Assembly: GCA_046563655.1 (NCBI GenBank)
Contig: CM102286.1
Location: 1,612,001-1,676,000 of the forward strand
Direction of reading: 5' to 3'
Length of the DNA: 64,000 nucleotides
DNA from: Yuukianura sp. NJ FZ-2021
Taxonomy: Eukaryota
Below, in pieces: positions 9,794 through 64,000 of the stretch (positions are counted from its first letter, which is position 1; each line of letters starts with the position of its first letter). The notes beneath the pieces are model-generated. The model searched no databases. It saw nothing but the letters and a program-made list of their open reading frames with translations, and had not been told where the DNA came from. The position numbers and the translations under genes are program-made.

Positions 9794-10275
9794 CAAGGAT
9801 TTTTGTGATATTATATTTTAATGTATTTTATTATTCTATATTATATTTTAACTTGCAACATGGACATAAACATACACGTGTAAAATATCTATGTTCTCAG
9901 GATAAGTGTAAAACATTTAACTGACAGATTTAGAACCAATTAATTATATAATTTAAATATTAATTAATATTAATTGAACTATTAATCAATTTAAATATTT
10001 TGCAACAACGTATTTAGGTCACTGACCTTTTAGTGACCTTTTAAAAGGTCATGCGGAACTCATTGTTAACGGAGCGTTAATGGCTTTTTCTCGCAAAAAT
10101 TTTGCAACTGTTCTTGTGTAATGCGTTTTATTTTTTGAATCCATGAATTATAATCATGTATGTAAATGTATGGACAAGTGGATACTTTTTTTTACTTGTT
10201 AACTAGAAGTTAGTAGTTAGTCACAGTGTCATTAGTTTGACAAGTAATTTACTTTTTGAAGTTAAATTCAGAAAA

Positions 10276-12975: not shown

Positions 12976-13196
12976 AATATGGAGCGTTCCATATTCTATA
13001 TTCTACATTCATATTCTATAAACTCTATAAAGTAAGTTGCAATTACTCTCTTCTATTTTTGACTCTATTAATTATAATTATGTATGTAAATATATGGACA
13101 AGTGGATACTTTTCTTCTTACTAACTAGTTACTAGTTCGTCACAGTGTTAGGATTCAGTTGACAAGTATTCACTTGTTAAAGTTAGATTTAGAAAC

Positions 13197-18900: not shown

Positions 18901-19952
18901 GGTTGACCAATATTTTATGTTTTTTTGGTTTTGCAAAAAAATAAGTGTTCTTTCTTTTCCGGGTGTCGTAGTCATAGAAATACAGCCGAATTTTTTAAAT
19001 TTTACTTACGAATTGGTACCAATTTGGATTAATACAAAAATTGGTTCCAATTTTTTTTTCTTTTTTTTTTATCAACAAACGAGGTAGTGCTCAACCTGTT
19101 CAAGAAAATTAACTTTTTGTTGTCAAGAAACCTTGGTTTAAATGTGTGTTTTACCGTAAAATTCTTGTCGTCAACGAAGGTTCCGAGTTCCTGTGGAATC
19201 GTCGGCGGATTGACTTTGCGAGGACAAATTCCCGGGCAGGAATCAGTTGTTGAGCCTACATCAGTAACACTGCTGGAGTTGCTAACATTAGACGACGTGA
19301 CCTTTGACACAGTCGTCTGAGTCAACTGATTTTGTGCCTCTCTTTCAATCGGTGCGCTAATTTTCAGTATTCCGTCTTTGCTCAAACTGCATTTGATCTT
19401 TTCTGGAGTCACTCCCGGGGGAATACTAAATTTTTTACTAAACGACCGAGATTTGAAATTATTTTCGTTAATTTTAATTTCCTGTTTCCCGGTAATCATC
19501 ACAACGTCATCCAAAACTTTGACCTGGATGTCATCCGGAGCATACTCTGCCACGTCTACCTTCATCTACAACAAAACAGTTAGATTTAGCTCAAAGGTCA
19601 AAGGTCAAAGGTCATTGACCTTTCAACTTACTTCAAAAGTATCCTGTTTCTGGAGACAAGCCACTTGAGTCGACACGTCTTCAAAGTCACGCTCGTTTCC
19701 GCTGAATCTTTCTCCCAAAAAACGTAGCGGTTCCATCATAAAGTCTCCATCCGTGTTGAACATTTTTTGAATTTGCGTGATTTGGCGCGTTTCTTTTCGT
19801 GACGAAAGTGGCGACCCCTCGTGACCTCCGAATTCTCCAAGCGAACTGGAACTCTCCACACTTTCACTGCTGTGCTGCACAACGCGATGAATGGATTTCG
19901 TCGTTTTCGTGACAGTGCTCCGTTCTTCCTGGACTTCATGATGCTGATCCAT
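15994..19952 (-). CDS. small heat-shock protein (HSP20 family) with six tandem alpha-crystallin domains, ~1038 aa
   Basis: Exons 19952-19632, 19565-19155, 18812-18102, 17928-17458, 17342-16920, 16851-16303, 16224-15994, all joined by phase-0 GT-AG introns. Exons 2-7 each carry [D/N]V..[Y/F]..[E/D][E/D]I.V.....I.G....S[R/K]SF.K...IP.GV......L...G.L.I.AP. The linkers are Q/T/P-rich. Confidence 0.88.
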
Positions 19953-20088
19953 CGTTTAACTTTTAAGTTTGAATAAGTTAATGTCAATTAAATTTAACTT
20001 TAACTGAGGTTTCTGTTTGTTCAAGGGCGTGGTTTGACCTGCAACTTGTCAAGTGTGCTACTAAACTCAAGATTTGTGAAAGTGGCTT

Positions 20089-42751: not shown

Positions 42752-44126
42752 TTAGGCTGTGCGAAATTTGTTTTTCTTTAAATCCCGAAAATTAGTAAGA
42801 ACTGCAGCTTCAAAATTTGGTGAAAGAGAGCAATAATTTTTTGAATGGATTTTTCCTTTTTTAATTGCCGTTTTTAGATTTTTGAGTAGTCGGCTACGAT
42901 TAAATGTTGCAGAAAGGCGGGTATTTTTAAAAACTTTGAATATTTTAAAGTATGTGGAGTCGTTGTAGTAGCGAGTAAATGCTAAACCGCAACCATGAAG
43001 AACTGCCAGTCCATCCTTGATGTCGTCACAAACTTATTTCCTCTCGATGACAATTCTTTGGTCTAAAGTTCCACGCAGGGTCCAGTAAAACTATTTCGGT
43101 TGGATTTCTTGTCAAAAAAGTTTCTAAAATGTCCTAAACAAATTCAACACAAAAAGTGTTGCTAGATGCAGATGTGAAATTTATGGTTTACCTGATCGGG
43201 ATAAATAAATTTTGGACGAAGTTCTTTGGCAATTTTTAAAATTCTGGGCGTGAAGTGGCTAGATCTCATCCGAGTTAAATTCATAAGCAAAACTCCGGAA
43301 TTGAGTGGAACCCGGTCTTTCTTGGCTGTTGTTTCAGGATCTCCTCGGTGAATACTTTGGATAGAGTGATAGTGTGGTGCAATTGAAGCCAAAGAGTGCA
43401 TGTCATGTGACTCAAATTTGGCCCAGAGGTCAGCGACACTTGACACTTCCCAGAAAAATGAGGTCAGTATCCAGGTAGAGTACGGAGTCAAACGTCGGTA
43501 GAAGTTCAGGAAAAAAGAGTCTGGCGGATGAACAAGGTCGAAAAATAGAAGCCATCCACTCCGAACCTTTAAGTAAAAAAAATTCAAAATTCAAAAAGTA
43601 TGCTAAAAACTAAACTAATTTTGAATCCTATCATTTTTTTAATCTTGCCTTGAGGGTACTTGAGCGGAATAAAATTTAACTTCATACGGCTAAAGAATTT
43701 GGAATTCCACTGTTCACTATTCCCATAAATTGTTTCATTTAGCTTGTCAAAATTAGTTTTTTCATTTGACAAAACATTTATCTCGACACAATTTTTCGAA
43801 AAATTTGCTCCTACGCTGTTCGTCCTCGTATTGTCCAATGTTATTAGAATTGACTTGATGAGAACCAGAGTCTGGTCCAGTTGTCTTGCAAAACGTTTAC
43901 CGGCCCTTCCAGAACTTTTTGTCTCACTACACATAACCACTACCACTTTGATTTGGCACAAATTGAGGTCAATGACCTTTGAATCACTTTTACCGACTTC
44001 TGCTTCACTGTTTTGAATTAAACGTTTCCTGGTATCGACAAAACAAATCAGCAGGAAAACAACTACTATTTTACCGCTAAAATTTGACCACGAAGGAGCA
44101 AGAAACATTGTTGACAGCCTTAGCAA
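42752..44126 (-). pseudogene. glucoside xylosyltransferase (GT8, GXYLT/shams-like), two frameshifts
   Basis: Motifs QTLVLIKS, FRPCSSARLF, LYLDTD, LNSGVLLMNLTRMR, PDQD, WNF, VLHG. Frameshifts from a 7-bp duplication at 43435-43448 and near 43035. Confidence 0.8.
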
Positions 44127-44361
44127 AAATTGACAATGTTCTGGTATGAGTTATTCAGCATTTTTCTCCAAACCAAAGCTAACCATATGTGTTGCATTTT
44201 ATAAAAATTTAGAAGGTTATTGAACCAAAATATGTAAACAAGTTTATTATAATCATATCAATCAATTTTCAAGTAAAGTAGCAAATATATAAATTAGCAA
44301 ACGACAATTACTAGCTAGCTTTTCACCATTTTTCTTTGGTTAAAAATTTACTACAATATTT

Positions 44362-45697
44362 TTATTTTCCTATTTTTGCACGATTCAAAAACGGCGCCAG
44401 TACTGAGTGTTCAAATTTCGGAGCACGTGAACATCTATCTTTGGAAGTCTTTTGCGCATTTTGAATTGCGGTTTGCAATTTTTTCATCATTTGGGCACTA
44501 TTAAATTTTTTGGAAAGGTGAGCCATTTTGAAAACCTTAAAAATTTTATAAAACGTCTTGTCTGGACGGAGGGAGGTAAATTGGCCACCAAAACCATGCA
44601 GAACTCCAATTCCGTTTTGGATGTCACTACATACGTACTCTGGGTCACAAATTGGTCCAAAGTTCCAACAAGGATCCAGAAAGGCAATTTCTTTCGGATT
44701 TTCGTCCAAGTAAAATTCTAAAATGTCCTGCACATTTTGAAAATAGAGCACAGTAAGTACAATTTCCAAGTTTTTAAAATGTCATTTTCATACATACCTG
44801 ATCACCATACACCAATTTTGAGCGAAATTGTTCAGCGGTTGTAACAATTTTTTGAGTCCATCCACTGGATCTCATCCGAGTCAAGTTCATTAGCAAAATG
44901 CTTGAATTTATTTGAATTCGTCCTTTTGTTGCCATGGTTACTGGATCTTTCCTGAGGACACTTTGAATAGGATAACGTGGTGTAACTGATGCCAGCGAGT
45001 GGAGGTCATGTGACCTAAATTTTTCCCAGAGGTCACTCATACTCCGCAGAACTAAAGTGTCCGTGTCCAGGTAAATAACGGAGTCCATTGTTGGCAATGA
45101 TTCGGCTAGGAAGAGTCTGGCGGTGGCGAACGGTCGACAACTGTAGAACATCCACGAAGGAGTGCCTTGATTACAAAATTTTGAAACAAAAATAAATGAA
45201 AATCAAAATTCACCTAACGTTTAAAAAATTTTTTATATGCAGGCTTGCCTTCAGGATACTCGAAGGGAACAAAATCTAGTTTCATACGGTTTACAAATTT
45301 GGAATGCCACTGGTTACTGTTGCCGTAAATTTTTTCGTTTAGTTGGTCAAAAATACTTTTTTGATTTGACAATATTTATATGGAGACAATTGTTTGGAAA
45401 TTTCGTTTCTCTTTTGGAAATTTCGCTGTTGTCCAAAGTCATCAACATAGACTTGATGAGAACCAGGGTCTGGTCCAGTTGTCGCTTGAAACTTTTAGTA
45501 ATTCCTGTTTTTCTAGGACCACGGCATACTATCAGGGCTATCTTGATTTCACAACTGCTGAGGTCATTAACCTTGGAATTGTTTTTGCTGACTTCTGCTC
45601 CATTCCTTTGAGCTAAACATTGCTCTAAACAAACGAAACTAAGCAGTAGCAACACAGTGACTGCAGTTAAGTGTGAATTTGAACCAACCGCCAACAT
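44362..45697 (-). pseudogene. glucoside xylosyltransferase (GT8, GXYLT/shams-like), single frameshift in exon 1 (could be an assembly error)
   Basis: RPFATARLFL, IYLDTD, INSSILLMNLTRMR, YGDQDIL, PCWNF, VLHG. The exon-1 frame breaks near 45370 relative to the paralog. Confidence 0.7.
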
Positions 45698-46163
45698 TTT
45701 TTAGTAATTTTTACACAAAAAAAAACACAGAGACGTGTCAAAAAATCGGCGTTTGTTTTAGCTGAAATGGAAAGGAACAGAAATGCAATACGTTCCAATA
45801 TGTCCAGTAAAATCCAACACAAAAATTGTTGCTCCATGCAGATGTGAAATTAAATCACAATAATTTAGTCGTTTTTGGAATATTAGGCAGAATAACTAAT
45901 TTTATTGTTGCTTGGATGCAATTAATTGACTCGAAAAAAATTCTACCGATCTTAAGTAGCGAAAGTAGTTCGATACTTTATGTTTTTCGGCGTCTGTGTC
46001 TGTCTGTCTGCTGGTCAGCATAATTCTAGAACCGCTGGACTCATTTTCTGTCTAAATGAGGCACAGATTTTTATTCATCTCTTGGTATGTAGGAACAAAG
46101 TATAACAGTTTAACAAATTTCTCTAACCTCATAAAATATATTACAATATAATTATAATGTCAA

Positions 46164-47729
46164 TTAAAACAATTTTGGCAACATGAATGACAAAATTAAC
46201 ACCATGTTGGTATAAGGTTGAATCCGTCCGATGTTTGAAGTTGCTTCTGTGCGTTTCTGCCACAAAATTTTGCCATCGAAATCAGAAATTTTGGATGTTT
46301 CGACAATCTTTTTAGAAGCAGAATTTGATATGTGTTTTTGATGACGAAGTTTGTGGTGGTGTCCAAAAAATTTGTAAAGTTGTTCTGGAGATATCCATTC
46401 CAAAAGAGCTTCGGACCACTCCTGTTGGTCAAAACTACAAACAGTAAAAGTCATGCGTTAAGGTCAAAAGTCATCCGTAATGATAATTGTTTTTCAATGC
46501 TTACCCATAAACGTGCAATGTTTTCCGTGTACGAGGCGCCATATTTGCTTTGATTATCTTCAGAATTACTTTAAACCAAAAAAAAAAATAATAACACTTT
46601 AAACTTTCTCCAAGATAGTTTTTTCGTCAAAGAAAAATCTATTTACCTTCAAAAATACGCGGAGCTAAAAAACAAAAAAAAATATAAGTTTCGGAAGTTT
46701 CAAATAGAAAAAAAATAATTCTCATAATTTCTATAATTTCTTTATAAAACCTAATAAAGTCAAGAATTTTTCTTTTTACTGTTAATCATGAAGAATGCTG
46801 CACTAAAGTCTGGATAGTTGTCCTCAACTGCTTGTAATACGTCGGTGCACATCTTCAGGCATTCGGGACAAGCATGTCTACGGACATTAAATCCATTGAT
46901 GTCAACGATTCCGACCATTTGACTAAAATTTGAACTTATGGAGACTTCAAACAGTTTTTCCATCAATTTCAAAAACGCTCGTGAAACCGAATTGCGATTT
47001 CCAGTTATAATCATTTTTCTAGTGTCAAGTTCCGAACATCTTATGAGAATTGCTGTAACGAGAAAAAGATTGAGATTTTGACTTAAAAAAACTAATTTGT
47101 AGGTAGGAAGTCCAAGACACGTTTCAGGTAGTTTCAAAATTTTGAAATTCAAAATATGAAACAACGAATTCTACGTACTTGAGCGGCCTTCTCTATCTGT
47201 TCCCCATGTGTACTTCAAATCCTTATCCACCGGATTCATTTCGTTGACGATTCCATCGATATTATTTTCAGCACGCCATTTCAGATTCTACAAAAAGTGA
47301 AATTAATATTTTATAGAAATTTTGATATTTTAATAATTTGGTTTGTACTTTCAGAATCATTTCTGATGCCCGTTGTACATCAAATTCCGAGGCTCGCAAA
47401 AACCGAACCAGAAACGCGTCTTCAGTTTCATAACTTTTTGTCACATTTGATTCAACTGCGACTCGAAGCTTCAACAAATCCAAACAAAGTCGTCAAATAC
47501 ACAAAAAAAAAGTTTAATTTAGAAAAATACATTTTCAAACAAAATTCTTTAACGAAACAAAAAAAAAGCGAAAACTAATAAGTTTTTTCATACTTAAGAT
47601 TTTAGTTTTAGTTAGGGTACTCACTTGTTGTAGAAGAATTTGATTCTGTTCAGCATCCGTGAGTGATCCATGCACGCTGAAAATTGTGACAGCTAAGTCG
47701 ATTAGTAAAACAGTACTTACAAAATGCAT
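46164..47729 (-). CDS. CRAL-TRIO/SEC14-like protein F (second subfamily)
   Basis: Starts MHFVSTVLLIDLAVTIFSVHG; EDAFLVRFLRASEFDVQRA; HACPEC; EDNYPD; LLEWISPEQL; hydrophobic tail. Confidence 0.88.
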
Positions 47730-48332
47730 GCTCAGCCGAAATCGTAATTCAAAGAACAAAATTTTATTATAAAGAATTTAACTTTCAGCTAGTAGACAGA
47801 ATGATGCCGAAATAATTTGCATTTTTCCTTTTGTTTCTGTATCTACACAAAAATCAACGCTGCTTTATTAACTTTCCTGTTCTGTGAAATAAAAATTTAA
47901 TTAAAACTAGTTATGTGTGAGATAGATTTTATCCAATTTCATGTTTTAAAACTGTTCAGACTTCAAAAAATTTCAAATTGTATATAACTCAATATGTGCT
48001 AATTTATTATCAAAAGCTACTTATTGGTAATACATTGTCTGTCTGTCTGTTTTTCTGTTGTCTTTAAAAAAACGCCACTTCCTGCCACCAACTGCGTGGA
48101 GAAGATGGATCACTTACTAATTGTTGTGACCGTATAGCAGTCATTGTCTATTTTTTGCCAGCGATGTATTATATGGTACTAGGCCTCTTGTTGGTAAGGT
48201 AAATTCCTACAAATGTTATTCACATACACACGAGAACACATTTTGTGAGTTGATGTAGTTCTTGGTAGGTAGCAGCAAAGAACAGCAGTTTAACCAATTT
48301 CTCTAACTTAATTAAATATATTACAACATCAA

Positions 48333-49978
48333 TTAAAAGATTTGTGAAGTGAATGAAGAAATTAATACTACGCTGGTATAAGTTTGAATCCTTCCTATAT
48401 TTGTAGTTGCTTCTGTTTGGGTCTGCAACAAAATTTTGTCGTTGAAGTTAGAAAATTTTGATGTTTCGACAATCTTTTTAGAATTTGATATGTGCTTTTC
48501 ATGACGAAGTTTGTGGTGGTGTCCAAAAAATTTGTAAAGTTGATCTGGAGATATCCATTCCAAAAGAGCTTCAGACCACTCTTGTTGGTCAAAGCTACAA
48601 ACAGTCAAAGGTCATAAGTTAAGGTCAAAGGTCATCAATCAATAAAGATCAAAAGTCATAGCAAATTGTTTTTCGATGCTTACCCATAAACTTGTAGTAC
48701 TCTTCTTGTTTGAGGCGACATAGTTGCTTTGATTATCTTCAGAATTACTTCAAACGAAAAAGTAACTTTTCAAAATTTCACAAAAAAAAAAACCTTAAAA
48801 TGCTAAAAAATAGTCAATTTACCTTCAGATAGACGTGGAGCTAGAAAACCAAAAAAAAAAATAATAAGTTTGGAACAAGTCAAGGAATTGCACAAGCCAT
48901 TATAAGTTTGTGGATAAAACAGGAGGGATTCTCAAAAAAATTATAATTCTCATAATTTCTATAATTCATTTATAAATCCATAATAACTTCAAAGCTGTAT
49001 TTTACTGTTAATAAAGAAGAATGCTGCATAGAATTCTGGATAGTTGTCTTCAAGTGTTCGTAGTAATTCGAGGCCCAATTTCATGCAACCCGGACATGCA
49101 TGTTTACGCATACTGAATCCATTGAGGTCAAGGATTGCAATGCTTTGACTAAAATTTGAAATTCTCGATTCTTGAAACAGTTTTTCCATCAATTTCAAAA
49201 CCGATCGAGCAAGCAGCTCGGGATTTCCAGCCAGTATTAGTCTTCTAGTGTCAATTTCCGAACATCTTATGAGAATTACTACAAAGAGAAAAATTGAGAT
49301 TTTGACTTTTTTTTTTTTACAAAGAAACAGAGTAGTGTCAAAATTTTGATATACAAAATTCATCTCAGGGTTAGTGGATTGATAATTCAACTACTTTTAT
49401 ACCTGCTCGTCCAATTCTATCTGTTCCCCATGTGTACTTAAATTCCTTATCCATCGGACTCGTTTCATGTACAATTCCATCGATATTATTTTCAGCACGC
49501 CATTTCAAATTCTACAAAAAGTGAAATCCATATTTCATAAGGGTTTTGAAATAAATTAAATAATATACAAATACAATTAAATAAAGTATATTATTTTGGT
49601 CTGTACTTTTAGAACCATTTCTGATGCCCGTTGTACATCAAAATCCGAGGCTCGCAGAAACCGAATTAGAAAAGCATCTTCAGTTTCATAACTTTTTGTC
49701 ACATTTTTTTCAACTGCGAGTCGAAGCTTCAACAAATTAAAAAAAACAAATCAACCACTTCAAATACACATGAATTTGTTTTGAATTTTGAGCATTTTCA
49801 CAAAACCCTGAGAAAAAACTACGAAAACAAAAAATTTTTTTTCATACTTGCAAATTTTCCTTAGGTTACTCACTTGATTTAAAAGAGCTTCATTTTGAGT
49901 TTCACCTAGGTTTGATCCATGCACGCTGCAAGCGATTACAACTAAATCGATTACTAACACGGTAATGACACAACGCAT
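48333..49978 (-). CDS. CRAL-TRIO/SEC14-like protein G
   Basis: Starts MRCVITVLVIDLVVIACSVHG; HACPGC; EDNYPEF. Confidence 0.86.
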
Positions 49979-50804
49979 TTTAAGTAAAAATCTAAATCAA
50001 AATGGACAAAACCAAACTAAGCAATAAGTTACTTGCAGCGAAGTGACGCTTTGAGTCGAAAACCTTCAACTTAACCTTATAACACTGAGAAATTTTTGTT
50101 ATCTAGACAAGAATCGATTTGATGGTGTAAAACCCGTGTTTTTCTTTTGATATACTTTCAAGTTCATCATAGTCGAAAAAGATGTAGAAAAATTTAAACA
50201 AAGCCATTTTCTATACAGTTAAAGTACAAATTAGGCTAATAAAACTTAATTACCAATGCTATTTCATATGAAAAATGTTTCTTTTATGAAGTTTTTATGC
50301 CACAGGACATCCTGTTTTGTAAATTTTTTTGGAATTGTTGGAAAAGTAGTTCTCACATTCAAATGTGCTGGTTTTTGAGTTTCACATGAACTTCACATTA
50401 AAAACTCAACACAAAAGTGATCCCACTATTCATGGCCACATTTTGATGTGATTCTCCTAGTGCTTGGAGGTGTTAGGAGCGAAAATTTTAGTTGGTTTAA
50501 AATTTTGGAAAAATTCGATTTTCTCAAAACTGGATAGGTGATTATTTCTAGAAACAACTTTATCCAATATGCCACCTACAAATAATGCAATTGAATGCTC
50601 ATTAGGAGAAGCTGAATGCCGGGTAAAATCAAGGGCATGGCAGCCTATTAGGGTAGAAATGACTTGCTGTTCATTTTTTAATAAAGTCAAACTTGTTCTA
50701 AAAACTGTTTTAGTTGGATAAAAAATTACAGTTGAAAAATATAAGTCTTCAGACATACCAGCAAGTTTTTAAGTAAAAATTACAAACTACAGCATTTATA
50801 CAAC

Positions 50805-52228
50805 ATGTTTTCAGAGTCTACTACGAAACAGTTTTTTCAAATTTTAAGCATTGCTGAAAAGTGCATGTTGTCGGCGTTGCCGCGCAACGTCAACAATATG
50901 CGTAAATTGCAAAAGTTCAAGTACTTTGGTCTCTACTACTTGGGAATAACCTACTACACGATGGATATCATTTACCTAACATTCGCGGTCTCTCAGCTTT
51001 ATGAAGATCCAAAATGTACTGCCGAAGTATTCTTCAATGTTACGTTACATTGGGGCACAAGGTCGCTAGCTCTGCTGTTCCAGTACTACACCATTTGGTT
51101 CAGCACGGAAATTTTGGCATATCTGGAACAAGTTTTTGTCCTGCATCGAAAACTGCAAGGTATACATACACAGGAACAAGGTTGTTTTTAAATCAAAATT
51201 TCGCTTATTTTTTCTCAAAAGGTTGTTCCATAACTCCTTGTTTCTTGTTTTTTAATTTACGGCATTCGTACAAAGGGCCGCTATACCAACCTTTTACAGG
51301 AATTTCAAATTTTCAGAAAAAGAATTTTGAAGTTTCTTTTCGTTTCAGGAGAATTTGATGGAGAACATTTGCTGAAAGATTCGAATTCACAAGATACAAC
51401 TCGCCTAATGAAACTGGCTGCATTTGGAATTAAGTACTATGCATTCTTACCAGCAATCAATGTACTGACTAATGCTGCCAGCCCACAGTACTGGAGCGGA
51501 CAAATTTTTCCGCCAAACATTTACGGATCCATTCCATGGAAAATTGTGCTTTTTTGTATCGAATGGTACTTGACTCAAAGTGGCGCATTTATCGTCATCT
51601 TTGTTCTGACCATGACGATCCTCAACGTTTCATTCCTCAGATACTGGCTCTCAATACTCACGTACGATTCGATTCGAAAGGATATTTCGATCCAATTTTT
51701 TTAAAAAATTCATGACTAGCGAAAGTTTTTTTTAATGTTTCTTTTTTTTTTAAATTCAGCTCTAACATTGATCCAGGAGTGAATAATTCAGATGTTCCAC
51801 TCCAAAAATCTCTTGAAGTTTACCGCCAACTGACTTGCATCAACAGCACTCATGCAATGGCATTTAAAGCATTCCTTCGTTTTGCAATTCTCTATCTCCT
51901 TTACGTCACTGTCTTTTTAAATGTTGCGTTAATTCGTGTCAAAATTCCGCTTAATTTGACCCTGGCTATTGGATTTATAAATTTCGTTTGTTATTATTTT
52001 GCCTTTGTTTGGTTGCATAGCATCACTTATACAGTGGCCAAATCCCAAAAGTTCATCTCTTGCCTTGTGCAGACGCAGTCGTCTTTTTTCAAGAAAAGCG
52101 CTGTTTCCTGTCATCAACTGTCTGGAGAAAATGGATCACTTTTTAAATGTAGTGACCGAACAGCAGTTATTGTGTATTTTTCAATAGTGATGGATTATAC
52201 GGTCCAAGTTCTGCTTCTGGTACGATAA
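50805..52228 (+). CDS. gustatory-receptor-like 7TM chemoreceptor, copy 1
   Basis: Three exons with multiple TM helices. The C-terminus G.LF......IVYFSIVMDYTVQVLLL resembles TM7 of the arthropod GR/OR superfamily. The family assignment is by pattern only. Confidence 0.6.
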
Positions 52229-52481
52229 ATTTCGTCAAAAAATTTCGGCATAACGCCAATAATTAAATCACCGTAGAAAAGTCAGCAGTTACATGCATTT
52301 TTTTCGGATTTCCTGCTAAAAATTTCAACAAAATTTTAACTGAATAAAAGCTATAATAGAATAGGAAATGTTTCCAAATTGGACACAGATTGTGACCTGC
52401 TGCTTGTAGGTAGGAACAAGGCATAGCTGCTTAACAATTTTCTCTAACCTAGTAAGATATATTACAATATAATTATGTTAA

Positions 52482-54458
52482 TTAAAGCAAGTTTGACAAA
52501 ATAAATGACAAAATTAGCACTATGCTGGTATAAGTTTGGATCCGTCCGATGTTTCGAGCTGGTTCTGTTCGGGTCTGCCACATAATTTTGTCGCTGAAGT
52601 CAGAAAATTTTGATGTTTCGACCATCTTTTTAGAAGCAGAATTTGATATGTGCTTTTCATGACGAAGTTTGTGGTGGTGTCCAAAAAATTTGTAAAGTTG
52701 TTCTGGAGATATCCATTCCAAAAGAGCGTCCGACCACTCCTGTTGGTCAAAGCTACAAACACGCAGTGGAAGGTCATGCGTTAAGGTCTAAGGTCATTCG
52801 TAAAGATGAAGCGTCATATCATGAAATTGGTTTTCAATGCTTACCCATAAACATGCAATATTCTCCTTGTACGCGGCGCCGTATTTGCTTTGATTATTTT
52901 CAGAATTACTTTAAACCAAAAAAAATTTTTTTTTGTAAAGTTTCACCAACAAAAAGCTTTAAACTTTTCCCATAAAATATTCAATTTACCTTCATAAATA
53001 CGTGGAGCTGGAACACAAAAATATTGGTTTTGAAAGTATCCAATATAAATTTCACATTATAAATACTGAACTTATAGAAATTATGGAGTTTAATTTATAG
53101 AATTTATGAAGTTCCGCCTCTTAGCTCGCGCTATTGGTCGATTTCAAATCTGTGACGTCACTTTTCAAACTTTTCTCATTTATAAAACTTAAGTTTTATG
53201 AATTTTGTGTTTATGAATTTTGTAAATCTCAAAAGACGTCATTACTAGTCACAAAAACAAAGCTTTTAGGCTTATAAACACACAGTGTAATTTCCATAAC
53301 TGAAGAGTTTTGAAAGTGACGTCAGAGAATTGGAGTCAACCAATCGCCCGACTTGTTGAAATTGGCGGATGGGAACAAAAGAAGTAGAAAACCTTGAAAA
53401 AAATTATAATTCTCATAATTTCTGTAACTCAGTTATAAATTTCAGTTAAGCATTGCTTCTTTACTGTTAATAATGAAGACTGCTGCACTAAATTCTGGAT
53501 AGTTGTCTTCAACTATTTGTAGTAATTCTAGGCCCACTTTCATACACTCTGGACAAGTATGTTTACGGAGACTGAATCCATTGAGGTCAACGATCCCTAC
53601 CATTTGACTAAAATTGGAATTTCTGGCTTCTTCTAACACTTTTTCCATCAACTTTAAAAACGCTCGAGCAAGCAACTCGCGATTTCCAGTCAGAATCATT
53701 TTTCTAGTGTCAATTTCCGTAGATTTTATGAGAATTGCTGTAACGAGAAAAAATATGAGAATTTGAACAAATAAAAACAAATTTTCATGTATCCCGTTTT
53801 CCATAAAATGATTTAGGCAGTTCCAAATTTTGATATTCAAAATTCGAAACTACAAATATTTTACCTACTCGAGCGTCCAATTTTATCTTTTCCCCATGTG
53901 TGCTTCAAATCCTTATCCAACGGATTCGTTTCATTTACAATTCCATCAATATTATTTTCAGCACGCCATTTTAAATTCTACAAGGGAAAGAATGTTTCAT
54001 TAAGGTTTTAAACTAAATTAAATAATAATAATATATTATGTATTATCTAATGCATAATAATTTTAGCATATAGTATATTTGGTTTGTACTTTTAGAACCA
54101 TTTCTGCTGCCCGTTGTACATCAAAATCCGATGCTCGCAGAAATCGAAGTAGAAGCGCATCTTCAGTTTTATAACTTTTTGTTACATTTTTCTCAACTGC
54201 GAGCCGAAGCTTCATCAAATTAAAAAAAAACGTTAATAAATACACAAACAATGCTTTTGAATTTCGAAAAATTTTGTAGCTAAGCCCCCCTCAAAAAAAA
54301 AAGAAAAACTAAACAATTTTTTATATTTACAGATTTTACTTAAAGGGACTCACTTGTTGTAGAAGAATTTGATTCTTTTCTTCATTAGTGCCCGATTCAC
54401 TCACGCTGGAAACTGTAACAACTAAATTGAGCAATAAAACAATAAGTAAGAAATCCAT
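52482..54458 (-). CDS. CRAL-TRIO/SEC14-like protein H
   Basis: Starts MDFLLIVLLLNLVVTVSSVS; HTCPEC; EDNYPEF; ends YTSIVLILSFILSNLL*. Confidence 0.86.
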
Positions 54459-55452
54459 TTTGAGTTAAAATTTAAATTCAAAAGGACAAAACTAAACTAA
54501 AAAATAATAAATTACTTGTAGTGAAGAGACTGTGTGAATTCAAAAGCAATTTGTATTTGACCTTGAAAGAAATGAAAGGCTTTTGCTATCTAGCGAAAAA
54601 TCAACGCTACTTCTACTTTCCTGTTTTGTGACTTAAAATTTTCCCTTAAAACTAGTTTGAAAAACAGCCTTAATTACTTAATGTTAATAAGGTAGAATTG
54701 GCTTTGGCTTTCATATTTAAATTTTTAGCCATTCTTTTACGTCAGCAATAAATCTAAAGATTCAGAAATTCAACTTTTTTTCAGCCCTTTTCTCTTTGCC
54801 AAATTAAATTAATTGCGCCTCTTGAATCCAATAGCACCGAATATAAAATGCTTATTTTGCTATACTGCAAATGAAAGCAAAAAAGTTGAGAGATAAGTTT
54901 TGGTTTTGTCCCATTTCATGTTTTCAAAAATATGAAAGTTTAAAAAATTTTAAATTTTATTACCCAATATGTGTCTATTAATTAGTGAAAGCCACTTATT
55001 GATTTGACTCTGTCTATCTGTTCGTCTGACTGTCATTCCAATGGGTCAACTCTTTCCAGGTCAAAGGTCAAGGTTAACCGCAGCCTGTTGTAGAAAATAC
55101 AACTCGGTTTTCAAGGAACCTTAATATTTTTTTTCTTGGAAAATTAAGTAGATTGGTTTTTTGAATGTTGCCTAATAAGAATATGAAATACTAAAAACAA
55201 TCGGTTTCGTAATGTTGTTGACACAAAAGTGTTGAAATGGAGCTAGCAGGTTAGTTAGTCAAGCATAGTTCCTCCTATTTCATGTTATCAAAAAAATGAC
55301 TGGTGAAAATTTTTTATCAAGGCTGTCCCAGTTTTCAACAAATTTTTCAATTGGATAGAAAATTAGTTTAACAAAAGTGTTGAAAATACCTAGTACAACA
55401 AGAACTCTTTTAAGTGACAAAAATAGAAAAATACAGTAACAAATTACACAGA

Positions 55453-56789
55453 ATGTTTTCAGAATATTCCACACAAGCATTTTTTGCAATTCTGAGCAAC
55501 GCTGAAAAGCTGATGCTGTCAGCATTTCCTCGGAATGTAAAAAGTATGGGAAAATTTGAGAAGTTCAAGTACTTTGGCCTCTATTTTTTGGGAATAAGCT
55601 ACTACACAATGGACAACATTTACCTAACGTTCAGGATTTTTCAACTTTACGAAGATCCACAATGTACTGCCGCAGTATTTTTCAAGGTCACTTTTCATTG
55701 GGTCAGAAGACACTTCAATATCTCCTTCCAGTACTATGCGATTTGGTTCAGAACTGAAATTTTGACGTACTTGGAATATATTTTTGCCATGCATCGAAAA
55801 CTGCTAGGTACGCACCAACTTTCAAAAAACTTTCTCTATTTTCTAAATTTTCAGAAAACTTTATTTCTTTTTTAAATTTTTGTTTGATTAGAACAATTTG
55901 CTGGAGAGGAGCAGCTACAGGAGCTGTTACACGTTTCTGGTTCAGACGGTACGAGTCGCCTCATGAAAATGGGTGTGTTTGCAATGAAGTACTATGCATT
56001 CTTGCCAGCACTCAACGTAGTTATTGATGCTGCCAGTCCACAGTACTGGAGCGGCCAGTTCTTCCCGCCAAAAATTTACGGATCCATTCCATGGAAAATT
56101 GTACTCTTTTGTATCGAGTGGTACGTAATTCAAAGTGGCGTCTTTATCGTCTCATTCTTCTTTGCTACAATTATACTCAGCGCTTCATTTCTTAAATACT
56201 GGCTGACGTTTCTCAGGTAAAAAAAAAGAAATTCAAATTTTTTTTTCACTTTCTAAAATTGATTTCCGCAAAAGAAATTTAATTTTTTTTAGAATTTAAT
56301 GTTTTTTTTAACTCTAGGTCTACCATTCAATCAGGAGTAGATAATTCAGATGTTCTGCCTCTAAAACTTTTCGAAACTTACCGTCAACTGACTTGTCTCA
56401 ACAACACTTATATGATGGCATTTGGACCATTTCTTCGTTTTGCAATGCTTTTCCTCCTTTACGGCACTGTTGTTTTAAATATTGCTGTAATTCGTGCCAC
56501 TCACATTCCGTTTAACTTGACTCTGGTCATGGGATTTATGAATTTCATTTGTTATTATTCTGCTTTTGTTTGGTTGCGTAGCATCACTTGTACAGTGTCC
56601 AAATCCCAACAATTCATCTCTTGCCTTGCGCAGACGCAGTCCCCTTTTTTAAGAAAAAGTGCCATCTCTTGTCATCAACTGTCTGGAGAAAATGGATCAC
56701 TCGTCAAATGTAGTGAGCGTGCTGCAGTCATTGTGCATTTTTCAAAAGTGGCGGAATATACTGTACAAGCTCTTTTGCTGGTACGGTAA
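55453..56789 (+). CDS. gustatory-receptor-like 7TM chemoreceptor, copy 2
   Basis: Close paralog of 50805-52228 with the same three-exon structure. Confidence 0.6.
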
Positions 56790-57087
56790 ATTCGTATACG
56801 AATTACTTAATGCTAATAAGGCAGGACTGGCTTTCAAATTCATATTTGAACTTTTGTTCAACTCTATATTTTTTTCTGCCAATTAAATAAATTGCTGTTT
56901 TTGAATATGATACCAACGACCATAAAATACTAAATCCTAAATAAGCAATGGTTTTCTCCCGTTTATGTAAGAGGCTTGAAATAAAGGTAAAAGTTAAGTG
57001 ACCGCTATGTTTCAACCTTTTCTTGTTTTCAATACTATTAAACTTTAAAAAGGATTCGAATTTTATAACTCAATATGTGCCTACTAA

Positions 57088-57510
57088 ATAGCGAAAGCTA
57101 CTTATGATTTGACCTCGTCGTCGGCCTGTCTCTCTGTCTGGCGGTTGGTGGTAATTATCTCGGGCATAGCTACATATTTCTGGGATCTTCTTTCACCCGT
57201 ATACCTGTTGACCCCCGGAAGTTCACTATTGAGTTCGCATGGGTCTACTCCATCCGGGTCAAAGGTCAAGGTCAACCGCTGTTATCCCCGGTAATATGGA
57301 AAATCACCCTTACAAAAAGTTGTCCGTCTGTCTCAACGAGTTCAACAACCATTGCGTGCATCACATGACCCAAAGTGACCTCTTTCTTGGTCAAACGTCA
57401 ACCTTGTTCATTTTACCGTTCATAGCCACGGTGCGTTATACGTTCGCCATGGTGTCTAAACGAGACAACCGTCTACAAATGCAGTTCTTTCGCTACTTAC
57501 GTGCACAAGT
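57088..57510. mobile_element. HINE/DINE-1-like interspersed repeat
   Basis: Subterminal inverted repeat TAGCGAAAG / CTTTCGCTA, a CTGT-rich tract, and homology to 38878-39272. Confidence 0.55.
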
Positions 57511-57859
57511 TTACAAATGAAACAATCTGATATGTTGGCATCGTTGTGGCTTTTTTTAATTAATGTCTTCCGACTGTTCACCCTATTTTCCGTTGCAATA
57601 AAAAATTAGGGAACAGTGTAAGAACATCCCGGTAGCAGGGAAAGCTTTCCTCTTTTTTTAATTTGACACTTTAGAAGCATTAACTAACTAGAAAAAGGTA
57701 AAAATTCAAATTAAAACGATAATAAAGGTTTTGTTTTACAACCGTTTCGCACTTTTCCATAAATTTTTCGGTTGGATAAAGAAATAGAGAAAAGTGTTGA
57801 AAAGTACATATATAAAACTTTTCTACAAACTTGCAACATTCGGTAACAAATTGAGCAAA

Positions 57860-59403
57860 ATGTTGTCAGAGTATTCTACAAAAGCATTTTTCACAACTTT
57901 GAGTAATGGAGAAAAGTTGATGTTGTCGGCATTTCCGCGCAACGTCAAAAGTATGCGGAAATATGAAAGGTTCAAGTACTTTGGTCTATATTTTTTGATA
58001 ATAAGCTACTACACAATGGACGTCATTTACCTTACCATCCGTATTTCTCAACTTTATGAAGATCCACAATGTTCTGCCAGAGTATTTTTGAAAGTAACTT
58101 TTCACTGGGCCAGAAGACTCTTAAATCTCCTCTTGCAGTACTACACGATTTGGTTCAGAACTGAAATTTTGACGTACTTGGAGCAAGTTTTTGCCCTGCA
58201 TCGAAAACTGCAAGGTATGTGTACACCAAGGTCCGTAAACACTAAAATAGTTTTTTCTTCAACAGGTTAGGAAATAACTAGAATATAACTAAATAAATTT
58301 TGTTAAAAAGTTAGCAAAACTTGCTTCACCGTGCCTTCCTATGGCAATGATTCATATGTAATCAAATGGATTGGCGGAAAAAATTGGTCGGGGTGGGATT
58401 TTACGTAAACCGGACTTATTGTCAAACCTGCTAAAGGAAAACTATTTCGTTGCTACAGGAACCTTAGTACATACCAAACTTAAATTTCCCGAAAACTTCT
58501 TATTTTTGTAATTTTTGAAATCTTTAAGGACAATTTGCAGAAGAACAGGAGGAGGAGGAGTTGCTACAAGCTTCGGGTTCACAGCATACGAATCGCCTCA
58601 TGAAAATGGGTCTGTTTGCAATGAAGTACTATGCATTCTTGCGAGCACTCAACGTAGTTATGGATCCTACCAGTCCACAGTACTGGAGCGGCCAGTTTTT
58701 GCCGCCAAAAATTTACGAATCCATTCCATGGAAAATTGTGCTCTTTTGTATCGAGTGGTACTTGACTCAATATGGCGTCTTTATCATCATATTCCTCTTT
58801 GCTACAAAAATGCTCAATGTTTCATTCCTTACATACTGGCTCACATTTGTCAGGTAAAAAATGGATTCAAAAATGAATTTTTATTAAAATTTTATTTCCG
58901 TGGAAGAGATTTTGGAAATTTTCAAATCTAGGTCTGCCATTCAGCCAGGATTGAACGATCCATATGTTTCGCCTCTGAAACTTTTTGAAACTTACCGCCA
59001 AATGACTTGTCTCAACAATACTTATGTGATGGCGTTCGGACCATTGCTTCGTGTTTCAATTCTTTTCCTCCTCTACACCACTGTTATTTTAAATATTGCT
59101 TTAATTCGCGCCACACACATTCCGATTACTTTTACTCTGCCCGTGGGATTTTTAAATTTCTGTTGTTACTACTCTGCCGTTCTTTATTTGCGTACCATCA
59201 CTTGTACAGTGTCGAAATCCCAAGAATTCATCTCTACCCTTGGGCAGACGCGGTCGAATTTTTTAAGAAAAAGTGCCATTTCATACCGACAACTATCTGG
59301 AGGAAATGGATCACTCTTTAAATGTAGTGGGCGTGCTGCAGTCATTGTGTATTTTTCAAACGTGGCGGAATTTACTGTCCAAGGTGTGCTATTGGTAGGG
59401 TAA
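57860..59403 (+). CDS. gustatory-receptor-like 7TM chemoreceptor, copy 3
   Basis: Close paralog with the same three-exon structure. Confidence 0.6.
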
Positions 59404-60118
59404 ATTCGTAGAAATATTTGCTACATAGTGTGTATGTTATGTAGTACATGATGAATATGTTCTGAACATAATGCGTTTGTTCTGTACATAATGTGTAACA
59501 TTTCGTTCAGGAACAACTTTATTTAAAAATTTACTGCAATTAAAAATGATAAAAATGTGGTTTTTCCAAAGTACTCATAATATTATAATTCTTCGCGGCA
59601 AGGCAAGGTAAAAAAAATTATGAACTAAGCTAATCCTCACGTTAGCATTTGGAAAAATGTATTCTACCTGTTTTTAACTTTGAATTTGTGTTATAAAAAG
59701 TAAAATCTGCACCACCATGATGAAGTAAAACACATAAGTACTTTAGTGTGTGACCTAAATTTAAAATAAAGTTAAAATTTCACAGGAATAAAGTTTTACT
59801 CTTGCCGTGATAAGGAAAATAATAAATTGTAGTTTCAGTGTTGAAAATCCAGATTTTTTCTTGGATTTTTTTGTTACTTCAGGAAAAGTCTCATTGAATT
59901 TTTTTCTTCGCAAATCAGGAAACGAGTTTTTCTCAAGTTAAAAAAATACTAAGGTCACAGCGTATTTTCCATTTCGCATCTCTGGGAACTTTTGTTTACT
60001 GGATTCAATCTGTGTGACCAATTCTTGACTCGATCCAGTCTTGAAACATAAGTTGATTCAAAATCTATCTCCAGAAAAAAGAATTTGGACAAAAATTTGA
60101 AAATTTAAAATTAACGAA

Positions 60119-61421
60119 ATGACGGAACAACCAATCCGCTTGGACTTTTTTCCTTCTACGGAAGAAGTTGCAGTTGGAAAACGTTTGAAAGTGACCTTCC
60201 GATACCCGGATACAGATCATCCCATTTATGGAAAAGCAGTTGACCTTGAAGGAGAAGTTGACCTCATCATTCCTCAAGGGTAAGCATTTCGAGTTTCAAA
60301 ATTTCACGGAATTTTCAAAAATTGAGTTTTGGGAAGTTTCCCGCACTTTGCAAAACGCGAATCCACTCTAAAAGTGATAATTTTGAATTGATTTTTGCCG
60401 GTTTAGGTCGTATCCAATATCAAATTTCTATCAAATGGGAGCCACAGAACAAGACGAGCTGCTTGAAAATTATGTTCGACGACTGCGCAAACTCCATGAA
60501 GACTTGGACGATATAGAGATGAAAAGCCGGTTCCGTGATTGGCTAGTGACTTGCTGCCTCGTTTGCCCATTGATGGACGCTCGTTCAGACCTTTTCAAAT
60601 CTGTTTCAAACGTTTTTGCGATTGTTTTCCACATTGATGATTTGGCCGACGATGAAGAAATGATGCACGAAATAGGCCTAACTACTTCTGCTATTTACCG
60701 TTGTTACCCTAGTTGGGCAGGGATTTTTACCACTGGTGATACCAAATATTACGAAGAACTTGTTCTGAGATTCCCACTGTTAAAAACTGGATTCGATCAC
60801 ATGACGACTACGCTGGAAGATACGATTAAGATGGATCCAGGACTACGACTGAGACTAAAGTATATGCACCGCTCTTTTTTTGAATCAGCTGAAACTGTCC
60901 CGCTAGTTACAATTGACATGGAATGTGAAGGGGAAACTTTGTCAGAAGAATCGATGAAACTTGTACGTGGACTCAACGCGGGATTTCAAATTGCGTTAGA
61001 ATATATCGCAGCACTACAAGGAATTGAACTTTGCGAAAAAGTGCGCCAGAGTCTCCTGTTTGAAATTTTTATCAACGGCTACAACCTGGGCTCTGGACTG
61101 TTCAATGACATTTTTGGATTGAACAAAGATGTGGCCAAGTCTGCGTCAACGGACAACTGCATTTTGCGTAGAGTTGTAGGAGAAGGAATGTCGCTCAAAG
61201 CAGCCTTGGACAAAACTTTGAAACTGCTGCGTGATACGACGAATGATACTCGACTGGCGGGAAAAAAGTTGATTGAAGCCTTTCCCGGTGAAGAATCGGT
61301 TGCAAAATTTGTGCGAACTGCGGAAATAATTTACGATGGTCAAATTCTTTCGTATTTACTCCTGTTTAAACTTAAGGGACGTTATGGATCCATTGGTTTT
61401 CAAATTGTTTCGCAGGATTAA
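60119..61421 (+). CDS. class I (microbial-type) terpene synthase, ~391 aa
   Basis: Exons 60119-60279 and 60407-61421 joined in frame by a GT-AG intron. FHIDDLADD (DDxxD), VRGLNAG (PPi-sensor Arg), FNDIFGLNKD (NSE/DTE variant), C-terminal RY. Confidence 0.85.
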
Positions 61422-62128
61422 TCCGATTAGTTTAAATCGTTAGTTCTATCATCTTGTTCGTTAATTGAAGTGTCTAGTATGTCAAGTAATTAAAATTAAA
61501 GGTTAACTAGAGTCCCGGATTAACTTTTAGTTTTAAGCGGTGGTTTTCAACTAAATTTTAAATTTACTTTGGAGTTGAACGAAGGAATGCAATTTTCCCG
61601 CGCTAAAACTTTTTTGAATTTGAAATGCAAAATGACGGTGAGAAGACGATAAGATTACTAGAACTCAGCAGCAACTGTGCAAAATCATGATTTGAAAAAG
61701 CTTGATTTACAAGTAATTGATTGATAAAGTGTAATGGATAGTCTTAGTTTAGTTATCATAATTTAGAGCTATTAAGTTAATCGGTAATTGAAGTACATTA
61801 TCTACTGGGGTGCCCTAGTGTTCCACCGTGGAAAGTTACAGAAACTTCCGGGTATTTCCTCCCGAAAACCCGCGTAGTTTTAACTTCGTTGGTTTTAAAT
61901 TTTTTCCGCATTCAGTTTTTTAGAAGACAACAAATGATCAGCAGTGAACTAAATTTTTTTCGAATCCTTTCTTCCGTGCGAAATAGTAACTGGTTAATCG
62001 AAAATACGTTGATAATGGGATAATAATTTATTGGCATTAATTTGTTAATTGCATTTTAATTTTATAGGAGTATTGAGCATATCATTATCATCCACTCGGT
62101 TCGTTAGTTTTAGTTTAGTAACAAAATA

Positions 62129-63870
62129 ATGGACACGTTTTTTGGAGCCACTGCGATTCAGCTGGAACCACATGATCGATTTGATAGTCAAGATGAACGA
62201 TTATCAATGGTACAGGAAGGAGGAATCGGGTAAGTTTACTTGAAAGTAGTACTTTCTAGAATACCTCTTGTACTTGTTACTGCGTTAACTTGAGCCGTGT
62301 TATTATCTCAATTGCAGTTATTTTATGACGTCATCGTCATGGAATGCTGGATATTGCAATACCTGACCTTTTGTCAAGGTTAAGTGACTCTTGATCTTTG
62401 AACTTTCAGATACATCCTGCTCCAGCCATCTGACGAAAATCCGAATAGTATAACAATGTACATCAATACAGGATCACAGGAGATTGCTGAACCAACTCAT
62501 GCCACACTAACAGTGGAATCGACAAATCCTGAAACCAATCAAAAACAGGTCCAACGATTCAAGTGCGAATATGACGGATGTACCAGGACGTATTCGACTG
62601 TTGGCAATCTTAAAACTCATTTGAAGACTCACAAGGTACTACTACTATTTACTTTGAATTCCAGCACAAGAATAGTCAATACAATTTCATCAATTTTATT
62701 TCTTTCAGGGTGAATATAAGTTCACATGTACCGTCGACAACTGTCACAAACAGTTCCTCTCCAGCTATTCACTGAAAGTTCATGTCCGCGTTCATACGAA
62801 GGTGAGGTTTTCCATTTTTTAACAACCAATTTTTGAAAAACATGACACTAAAGTTGAACATTTATAAAAATACCACCGTTATTAGGACAAACCCTTCAAG
62901 TGCACTGTGGACTCATGCGACCGTGCCTTCACGACACTTTATCGACTAAAAGCACATCAACGTCTACACGATGGCAATACTTTTAATTGCGACAGCTGTT
63001 CGAAGCACTTTACAACACTATCTGATTTGAAGAAGCATTATCGAACGCATAATGGAGAGAGGCCTTTTAGGTCAGTCGATTTTCAAATTCTCTTAGTTCC
63101 AGTGTAGTTATCCAAATTTTGTAAAATTGACATTGTTTTTCAGATGTGCCGTTACGAACTGTGACAAGAAATTCTCGGCCTCCCATCACCTCAAAACCCA
63201 TACCCGTGTCCACACCGGAGAACGGCCTTACATTTGCCCACTGTGCGAAAACAAAAGTTTCGCTACACAAACCAGTCTCAAGGCCCATGTCCTCAAGAAA
63301 CACGGATCTGGAAGAGATGCTGCTGGTACTGGCGGCAGTAGTTCGGGTGACGACACGTCTATGTCAATTGTCTTTGATGAATCAGAACTTGAAGAACTGG
63401 AGCGTCTTCTGGGTGTCCCGCTGGAAAAATTCGATCACAGTGTCAAGGTCGAACAGCTCAAGAACGTCGGGGACTCAAACGACTGCAAGTGCAAGAAATG
63501 TTGCAAGACAAATTGCCAACCGGATTGCTGTTGCCTCAAAACTTTGGACAAACTGAAGAAGTTCATGGAGACAAAGAAGGTTTGTATCTGCCCATGTCCA
63601 GAAGAGCCTTCAGGATTCAAATTAGTGGAGCCTTCGAATTGTATTATCTTAGAAGAGGAACAACCACCGACCTATTCAATGCCAAATGAAGAATGGATTT
63701 GTTCCACTCCTGGATGCACTGTCACGTCACCGTGTGACATTTGTAAAGACTTGCTACAAGCAGCAGCCACTTCAAAACCCGTCCTTGACTACCAACTTCC
63801 ACCAGATGATGGAAAGACTGTTGATGAAGAAATTGCAAGTTTTCTTAGTTCGTTGCCTAGCTCATTTTGA
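62129..63870 (+). CDS. MTF-1: metal-responsive transcription factor 1
   Basis: [51 protein letters not shown], six C2H2 fingers ([41 protein letters not shown]), and a Cys-rich C-terminus. Confidence 0.92.
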
Positions 63871-64000
63871 CTGAACTCCGGAGAGTCTTGACGGTAAAAA
63901 ATAGTCTAGTCAAATCCAGTGTTATAAAAGTTACAATCAACCATAATCCAAGATTAATCTCTTCCACGGTGCCATTAATCGTCTTTTACCAAACAGGTAT

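Follow-up and report, generated by a model that had tools for sequence, protein, structure and literature searches.

The terpene synthase gene

Positions 60119..61421 of the window, by which we mean the whole stretch of 64,000 nucleotides analyzed here, hold a microbial-type class I terpene synthase gene that is real, spliced, and part of an animal genome. The spliced frame begins with the ATG at 60119, joins two exons, and encodes 391 amino acids before a single terminal stop (Table 1). The spliceosomal intron proposed in the initial annotation is confirmed, with its site and phase identical in all 16 distinct subfamily genes tested (17 alignment rows, of which L003 duplicates L010). The segment encoded by exon 1 was also matched upstream of paralogues by tblastn. 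Exon 2 scores 34.9 bits against the Pfam family PF19086 (E 1.7e-8), above the curated cut-off of 23.7 bits, which settles the profile check that the initial annotation had suggested.

Table 1. Features of the synthase gene and its two neighbors (window coordinates)
Feature	Position	Strand	Comment
Upstream neighbor	57788..59403	+	last of three tandem multi-exon membrane-protein genes
Exon 1	60119..60279	+	161 nt (53 codons + 2 nt); conserved N-terminal segment
Predicted β-hairpin	60182..60268	+	about residues 22-50; HHalign link to bacterial-looking relatives
Spliceosomal intron	60280..60406	+	127 nt, GT..AG, phase 2
Exon 2	60407..61421	+	whole α-helical class I terpene cyclase domain and stop
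DDxxD metal-binding motif	60636..60650	+	DDLAD, residues 131-135
Pyrophosphate-sensor Arg241	60966..60968	+	exactly 46 residues ahead of NSE Asn
Variant second metal-binding motif	61104..61130	+	NDIFGLNKD, residues 287-295
Ser369	61350..61352	+	at Trp position of WxxxxxRY; 4-residue insertion follows
RY basic pair	61380..61385	+	residues 379-380
Two ATTAAA hexamers	61489..61500	+	possible polyadenylation signal (no chance expectation computed)
Downstream neighbor	62129..63870	+	multi-exon C2H2 zinc-finger gene

All of the class I motifs that had been read from the sequence (an aspartate-rich motif, a sensor arginine, an NSE-like motif, and an RY pair) are present, and the spacing between sensor and NSE is the one given as a rule for bacterial enzymes (PMC6808215). 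The two oddities that had been pointed out are likewise there. The second metal-binding motif fits the pattern (N/D)Dxx(S/T/G)xxx(E/D) but not the strict form NDxxSxxxE; Gly is part of the NSE consensus quoted in PMC5333544. The window protein has no Trp six residues ahead of RY, and RY follows Ser369 after 10 residues, compared with 6 in the canonical WxxxxxRY. The residues after RY probably form a C-terminal strand, judging from strand 365-373 in the model of a bacterial relative described below.

Neighboring genes and integration

A multi-exon membrane-protein gene is present three times in tandem at window 50745-59403, and the last of these copies is the upstream neighbor. No significant Pfam match was obtained for them, and the GR-like label of the initial annotation is unconfirmed. 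High-copy repeats, visible as depth spikes, lie near 55040-55120, 57240-57490, and 58240-58465. The downstream neighbor had been named MTF-1; it is indeed a multi-exon C2H2 zinc-finger gene, but its matches are generic zinc-finger ones and the name is unconfirmed. A link to this neighbor through metal-response elements was considered and dropped, with 13 sites in the window compared with 28 expected and none near the synthase gene. By eye, the stretches 8443-15422, 16261-19955, 43162-45700, and 46760-53849 hold tandem GMC-oxidoreductase-like genes, a gene whose several repeats resemble small heat-shock proteins, and genes of glycosyltransferase-like and CRAL-TRIO-like type.

The initial annotation held the gene to be integrated rather than a contaminant, and several observations argue for this. 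A single 5,564-bp contig from sequencing run X2 covers window 58626-64000 at an even depth of 47, with 120 differing letters, and joins the synthase to the membrane-protein gene upstream and to the zinc-finger gene downstream. A second study (run X5) covers 59956-60361 and 60693-61012 at a depth of 3-4, reaching parts of both exons and of the intron. Paralogues were found on several large contigs. The sample behind run X2 may be the source of the assembly itself, and the common intron site is the stronger argument for integration than the bridging contig; in addition, among the pieces listed, none covers the whole 9-kb stretch. With the intron common to the subfamily and one evenly covered contig joining the gene to both neighbors, contamination or a chimeric assembly is extremely improbable.

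Fold of the window protein

An AlphaFold2 model of exon 2 alone, built from a 48-row alignment, has a pLDDT of 94.2 and a pTM of 0.92 and shows the class I fold on which the initial annotation depended. The best match in a wide structural search is 10-epi-cubebol synthase (7zrn; Z 27.9, rmsd 3.0, 291 residues); selinadiene synthase (4okm) has Z 27.1 and the N-prenyltransferase DabA has Z 25.1. Among the Foldseek matches listed, all are terpene synthases. A PDB sequence search with exon 2 alone returned 0 matches, and a PDB profile search returned 94, with bacterial and fungal cyclases on top. The ESM Atlas gave generic terpene synthase clusters only, with no taxon signal. The C-terminal strand is absent from this model, which was built without exon 1.

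The bacterial class I cyclases 7zrn, 4okm, and CotB2 thus have fold, sensor spacing, and RY in common with the window protein, but identity is 10-16%, they carry canonical NDxxSxxxE and WxxxxxRY motifs, and the hairpin has no match in the canonical N-termini tested. The terpene synthases of insects that derive from isoprenyl diphosphate synthases (IDS) are also animal enzymes with the isoprenoid α-helical fold; these, however, have two aspartate-rich motifs and descend from FPP/GGPP synthases, whereas the window protein has one DDxxD. As the initial annotation implied, the window protein does not derive from an FPP synthase: there is no polyprenyl synthetase Pfam match in it at E up to 1, the DDxxD motif is single, and the fold matches listed are cyclases.

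A gene family in a probable springtail genome

The genome from which the window comes (98.7 Mb, 22 contigs) contains 38 matches to the window protein and 32 to the Pfam family, counts that refer to exon pieces and not to genes. The genome holds at least 31 distinct family genes, the number that we modeled, the window gene included. At position 5 of the NSE motif, 28 of these 31 have Gly and 3 have Ser; at position 9, 19 have Asp and 12 have Glu; the Trp of WxxxxxRY is found in none. The odd NSE motif and the missing Trp, which had been presented as peculiarities of a single gene, are therefore family traits. The four-residue insertion before RY is common to the subfamily of the window gene. 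The closest relative, P0003, comes from a metagenome contig. It agrees with the window protein at 200 of 328 positions (61%) overall but at all 25 of the motif and pocket positions compared, which were picked by analogy, without a ligand model. This difference points to selection on the predicted pocket of the window subfamily.

In the same genome there are 10 matches to the hemocyanin family but just 2, both weak, to odorant receptors; a non-insect hexapod would account for these counts better than an insect or a mite would. The genome size of 98.7 Mb agrees with the range published for springtails. The host genome is probably that of a springtail. Among 30 proteins looked up, one relative is named, and this is XP_021959800.1 (P0041) of Folsomia candida, which groups with four paralogues of the present genome at 100/99 (IQ-TREE). 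The window gene and P0041 fall in one 23-row branch supported at 91/92, below the tool's star level.

Some members of the family depart from the single-domain plan. One gene (L072, minus strand, 6866-6225 and 5910-4446; G000:C5, about 8778445-8780865) encodes a two-exon, 701-amino acid fusion of synthase and cis-prenyltransferase. Its hairpin-type synthase domain has EETFV in place of DDxxD with NSE and RY intact, and its second domain, which matches PF01255 (E 2.8e-53), is a cis-prenyltransferase of bacterial type. This architecture recurs in three metagenome relatives, P0075-P0077. Such fusions would have been dropped from the survey in PMC13638087, as proteins above 600 amino acids were filtered out there. 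Stand-alone, single-frame cis-prenyltransferases of bacterial type are present as well (L085, 2619-3488, and L086, 3579-4463, both minus; G000:C4 and C3); they are 41-44% identical to the cis-prenyltransferase domain of the fusion and start with MGNxCGK, by eye a possible lipid anchor. The main text of PMC13389597, so far as it was available, makes no mention of prenyltransferases.

In the paralogues L019 (1474-2715, minus), L025, and L027 and in the protein P0019, a basic, Ser-rich N-terminal extension resembles, by eye, a mitochondrial presequence. The paralogues L008 (34-1080), L003 (3547-4023), and L028 (550-1182) stand beside UDP-glycosyltransferase genes and a carotenoid-oxygenase-family gene (PF03055); the UDP-glycosyltransferase label has a Pfam match for L008 and none for the L003 piece. 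Conserved homologues that lack recognizable metal motifs also occur (L026, P0034, P0030, and P0060).

Comparison with known animal terpene synthases

Microbial-type synthases were already known from springtails (PMC13638087, PMC11665903), as the initial annotation stated. The characterized enzymes ScTC1-5 of Sinella curviseta (PMC13638087) and AfTPS2, FcTPS2, and FcTPS5 (PMC11665903) resemble the window protein in being α-domain class I enzymes with DDxxD, a sensor Arg, an NSE-type motif, and RY. Springtail synthases and the window gene also have introns, membership in a multigene family, and kinship to a F. candida protein in common; 277 genes are reported from 21 of 26 springtail genomes, 55% of them with introns (PMC13638087). 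By eye, ScTC1, ScTC2, and ScTC5 have an N-terminal extension resembling the hairpin (supplement of PMC13638087). ScTC1-5 differ in having Ser in the NSE motif, whereas in the window subfamily this motif carries Gly and ends in Asp, Ser replaces the Trp, and RY is preceded by the insertion. We identified no characterized member of the window subfamily in the comparison with the ScTC1-5 sequences; the Folsomia and Allacma enzymes could prove otherwise. In the 2026 study the springtail clade groups with no known lineage and its origin is called unresolved (PMC13638087).

The type I synthases of sponges are animal-encoded and have DDxxD, RY, and the motif NDxxGxxxD, as in the window gene; this last motif is found in 12 of the 13 enzymes tested (PMC9992776). 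Sesquiterpenes were formed by 7 of those 13 and diterpenes by 1, the other 5 being inactive or expressed poorly, and the sponge synthases are reported as a clade of their own (PMC9992776). Because Gly looks derived within our tree, its presence in the NSE motif of both sponge and window enzymes is likely to be convergence.

Hairpin-type bacterial relatives

A HMMER search of 1.84 billion representatives yielded no more than 58 proteins with E up to 0.001. Eleven of these and 2 more, 13 proteins in all, look bacterial and have an N-terminal segment like that of exon 1 together with an ending of RYG plus a strand; the labels "bacterial-looking" and "animal-like" were assigned to metagenome proteins by eye, and genomic context is available for 2 of the 13. 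The model of one of them, P0073, places strands 21-32, 35-44, and 365-373 around a helical core (pLDDT 81.9). When solved synthases were compared with this model, the aligned ranges began anywhere from residue 1 to residue 43.

A profile of exon 1 from the present genome matched the bacterial hairpins in HHalign with a probability of 85.9% (E 5.2e-6, 28 columns), whereas the probability against two sets of canonical N-termini was below 0.1%. In the reverse direction, a profile of the bacterial hairpins alone found the paralogues L030, L028, L023, and L024 and the fusion gene but did not find exon 1 of the window gene at E up to 10. As the hairpin-only profile missed it, the link for the window gene itself depends on the profile-profile test. 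The predicted hairpin of exon 1 and the one at the N-terminus of the bacterial-looking synthases would thus be homologous.

The helical core was considered separately. In an IQ-TREE analysis restricted to the core (55 of 95 rows, 272 columns, hairpin excluded), 15 canonical rows are separated with support of 100/98 from a group made up of 29 animal-like rows and 11 bacterial rows of the hairpin type, so that the suggested phylogenetic check against microbial synthases places the animal genes and the hairpin-type bacterial genes in one clade. The canonical rows comprised Chlamydiota, actinobacteria, a cyanobacterium, Serratia, haloarchaea, and one unnamed protein; the tree was built without named mite, sciarid, fungal, coral, sponge, or protist enzymes and without ScTC, AfTPS, and FcTPS. 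FastTree recovered the same split from all 95 rows with a support of 0.96.

The bacterial synthases represented by P0073 and P0059 therefore share with the animal genes the N-terminal hairpin, an RYG followed by a strand, and a clade on the core. They differ from the window gene in keeping the canonical NSE motif and Trp and in having no introns, and identity is about 22-33% in local alignments. Among hairpin-type bacterial domains, the Ser and Glu of the NSE motif are present in 14 of 14 and the Trp in 12 of 14, and for this reason the Gly and Trp-less state of the animal genes looks derived.

P0073 is located in a metagenome-assembled genome of Parachlamydiaceae (L031 1043-9909). Its gene neighbors have HMG-CoA reductase, NUDIX, diphosphomevalonate decarboxylase, GHMP kinase, thiolase, and HMG-CoA synthase domains. 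In this environmental chlamydia the terpene synthase sits inside a cluster whose domains make up a near-complete mevalonate pathway. P0059 (L087 3-2409) is a bacterial fusion of terpene synthase and cis-prenyltransferase, and its C-terminal half adjoins icmW of the type IVB secretion system, a system that we take as a mark of Legionellales-type bacteria. A common origin of the animal and bacterial fusions is not supported, as their cis-prenyltransferase domains are 27% identical and their synthase halves are not sisters; the bacterial fusion appears convergent. Two further proteins, P0023 and P0065, have two synthase domains in one chain. Eight Chlamydiota genomes (L033-L040) carry synthases of the canonical type, which branch together and separately from the hairpin type.

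The hairpin common to springtail-type and bacterial synthases and the clade recovered from the core are new here, with the proviso that sequences of this kind may already be present in the tree figures and external data of PMC13638087. The main text of that article has 0 occurrences of hairpin, Chlamydi, Legionell, and prenyltransferase. In literature searches with thin coverage of subscription journals, we found nothing on hairpin-type synthases of intracellular bacteria, including among work on terpene synthases or cyclases of Legionellales and of chlamydiae (by title) and on Legionella and mevalonate.

Origin of the springtail genes

The hairpin-type bacterial group offers a lead to the donor of the springtail synthases, one suggested by sequence comparison. 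The family would have been acquired long ago from bacteria and later expanded in the host. In the boldest reading, to which we give a little less than even likelihood, the springtail synthases descend from an undescribed bacterial β-sheet subfamily, with N-terminal hairpin and C-terminal strand, of intracellular Legionellales-type bacteria bearing Dot/Icm and of environmental chlamydiae. The gene would have reached early springtails through an endosymbiont or a parasite, perhaps repeatedly. The window gene would then belong to a later subfamily born in the host, in which a remodeled pocket (metal motif with Gly and Asp, Ser in place of Trp, and an insertion before RY) would lead to new terpene skeletons. 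Endosymbionts have been named as one origin scenario, for which no support was found in Rickettsia or Wolbachia (PMC11665903).

The relationship could also run the other way. Intracellular bacteria take up genes from their hosts, and the hairpin-type bacterial genes may have been taken from eukaryotic hosts or, together with the animal genes, may come from a third lineage outside the sampling, for example protists, in which case they would not be the donor pool. The scarcity of the bacterial genes fits this alternative, with a single hairpin-type gene among 400 scored Chlamydiota genomes and genomic context for just the two proteins described above, as do the weak deep branches inside the clade (83/80) and an AU test on 34 rows that did not reject monophyly of the animal genes (p-AU 0.234). 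It sits poorly with the ancestral motifs of the bacterial group, with the prokaryote-style mevalonate gene cluster around one bacterial copy, and with the next branches outward, which are bacterial. We regard this alternative as rather doubtful yet a serious competitor to descent from the bacterial subfamily.

Two more specific donors were considered and set aside. Chlamydiae as a general donor are not favored, as each of two overlapping 400-genome samples contained one hairpin-type gene, the order-level sample giving the same single gene; 10 of the 400 scored genomes have any PF19086 match. A viral donor is not supported either: in IMG/VR, a search for relatives of the hairpin group gave 493 pattern matches, none confirmed, and in BFVD the only strong match is an Orpheovirus synthase (TM 0.56, 16% identity).

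Predicted activity

We consider it probable that the window protein is an active, metal-dependent sesqui- or diterpene synthase. By analogy with the family, DDLAD and NDIFGLNKD would bind three Mg2+ ions, Arg241 and RY would hold the diphosphate and close the active site, and the prenyl diphosphate would ionize, after which the cation would be cyclized or quenched. On a weaker footing, Ser in place of the pocket Trp and the insertion before RY may make the pocket roomier and the cations less stabilized. Such a pocket would favor a short cascade, so the likely output would be an acyclic or simply cyclized sesqui- or diterpene from FPP or GGPP. An altered product through loss of the Trp is plausible by analogy with CotB2, in which W288G shortens the cascade and gives a less cyclized product; loss of the equivalent Trp in epi-aristolochene synthase abolishes activity, which counts against our reading (PMC6808215). 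Springtail synthases are active on FPP, GGPP, or GFPP (PMC13638087), and some make linalool, farnesene, nerolidol, farnesol, or phomopsene (PMC11665903). Because the five Sinella enzymes have Ser and not Gly in the NSE motif (supplement of PMC13638087), their activity does not vouch for the window subfamily; one of the five is inactive despite having all motifs (PMC13638087).

Two other outcomes have to be weighed against a cyclizing or quenching synthase. The protein could keep the fold and bind a prenyl diphosphate without cyclizing it, releasing only a prenyl alcohol or transferring the prenyl group to a small acceptor in the enlarged pocket. The change from Trp to Ser with the insertion would suit such chemistry, DabA has the same fold, and FcTPS5 yields only geraniol and farnesol (PMC11665903). 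In the structural ranking, however, true cyclases stand as high as DabA or higher, the sensor, effector turn, and RY are all intact, and no partner enzyme gene was found beside the synthase among the neighboring window genes, and so we think this outcome unlikely. That the gene is a catalytically dead or decaying duplicate is less likely still. The family is large and does contain broken or motif-poor copies (L020 and L027 with stops inside the match, and L013 with altered motifs), but the window gene has an open frame, intact splice sites, and all catalytic motifs, and its key positions are fully kept in P0003 despite the overall divergence of the two proteins. An active synthase is thus the reading that we carry forward, and its product would serve as a signal, a defense compound, or a component of the cuticle.

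Taken alone, the window gene adds one member to a class already in print, and its significance is modest. The bacterial sister group with a common structural mark, two members of which come from intracellular-type bacteria, makes the question of origin testable by tree. With new skeletons already obtained from springtail enzymes, the rebuilt active site of the window subfamily makes it a sensible target for assay.
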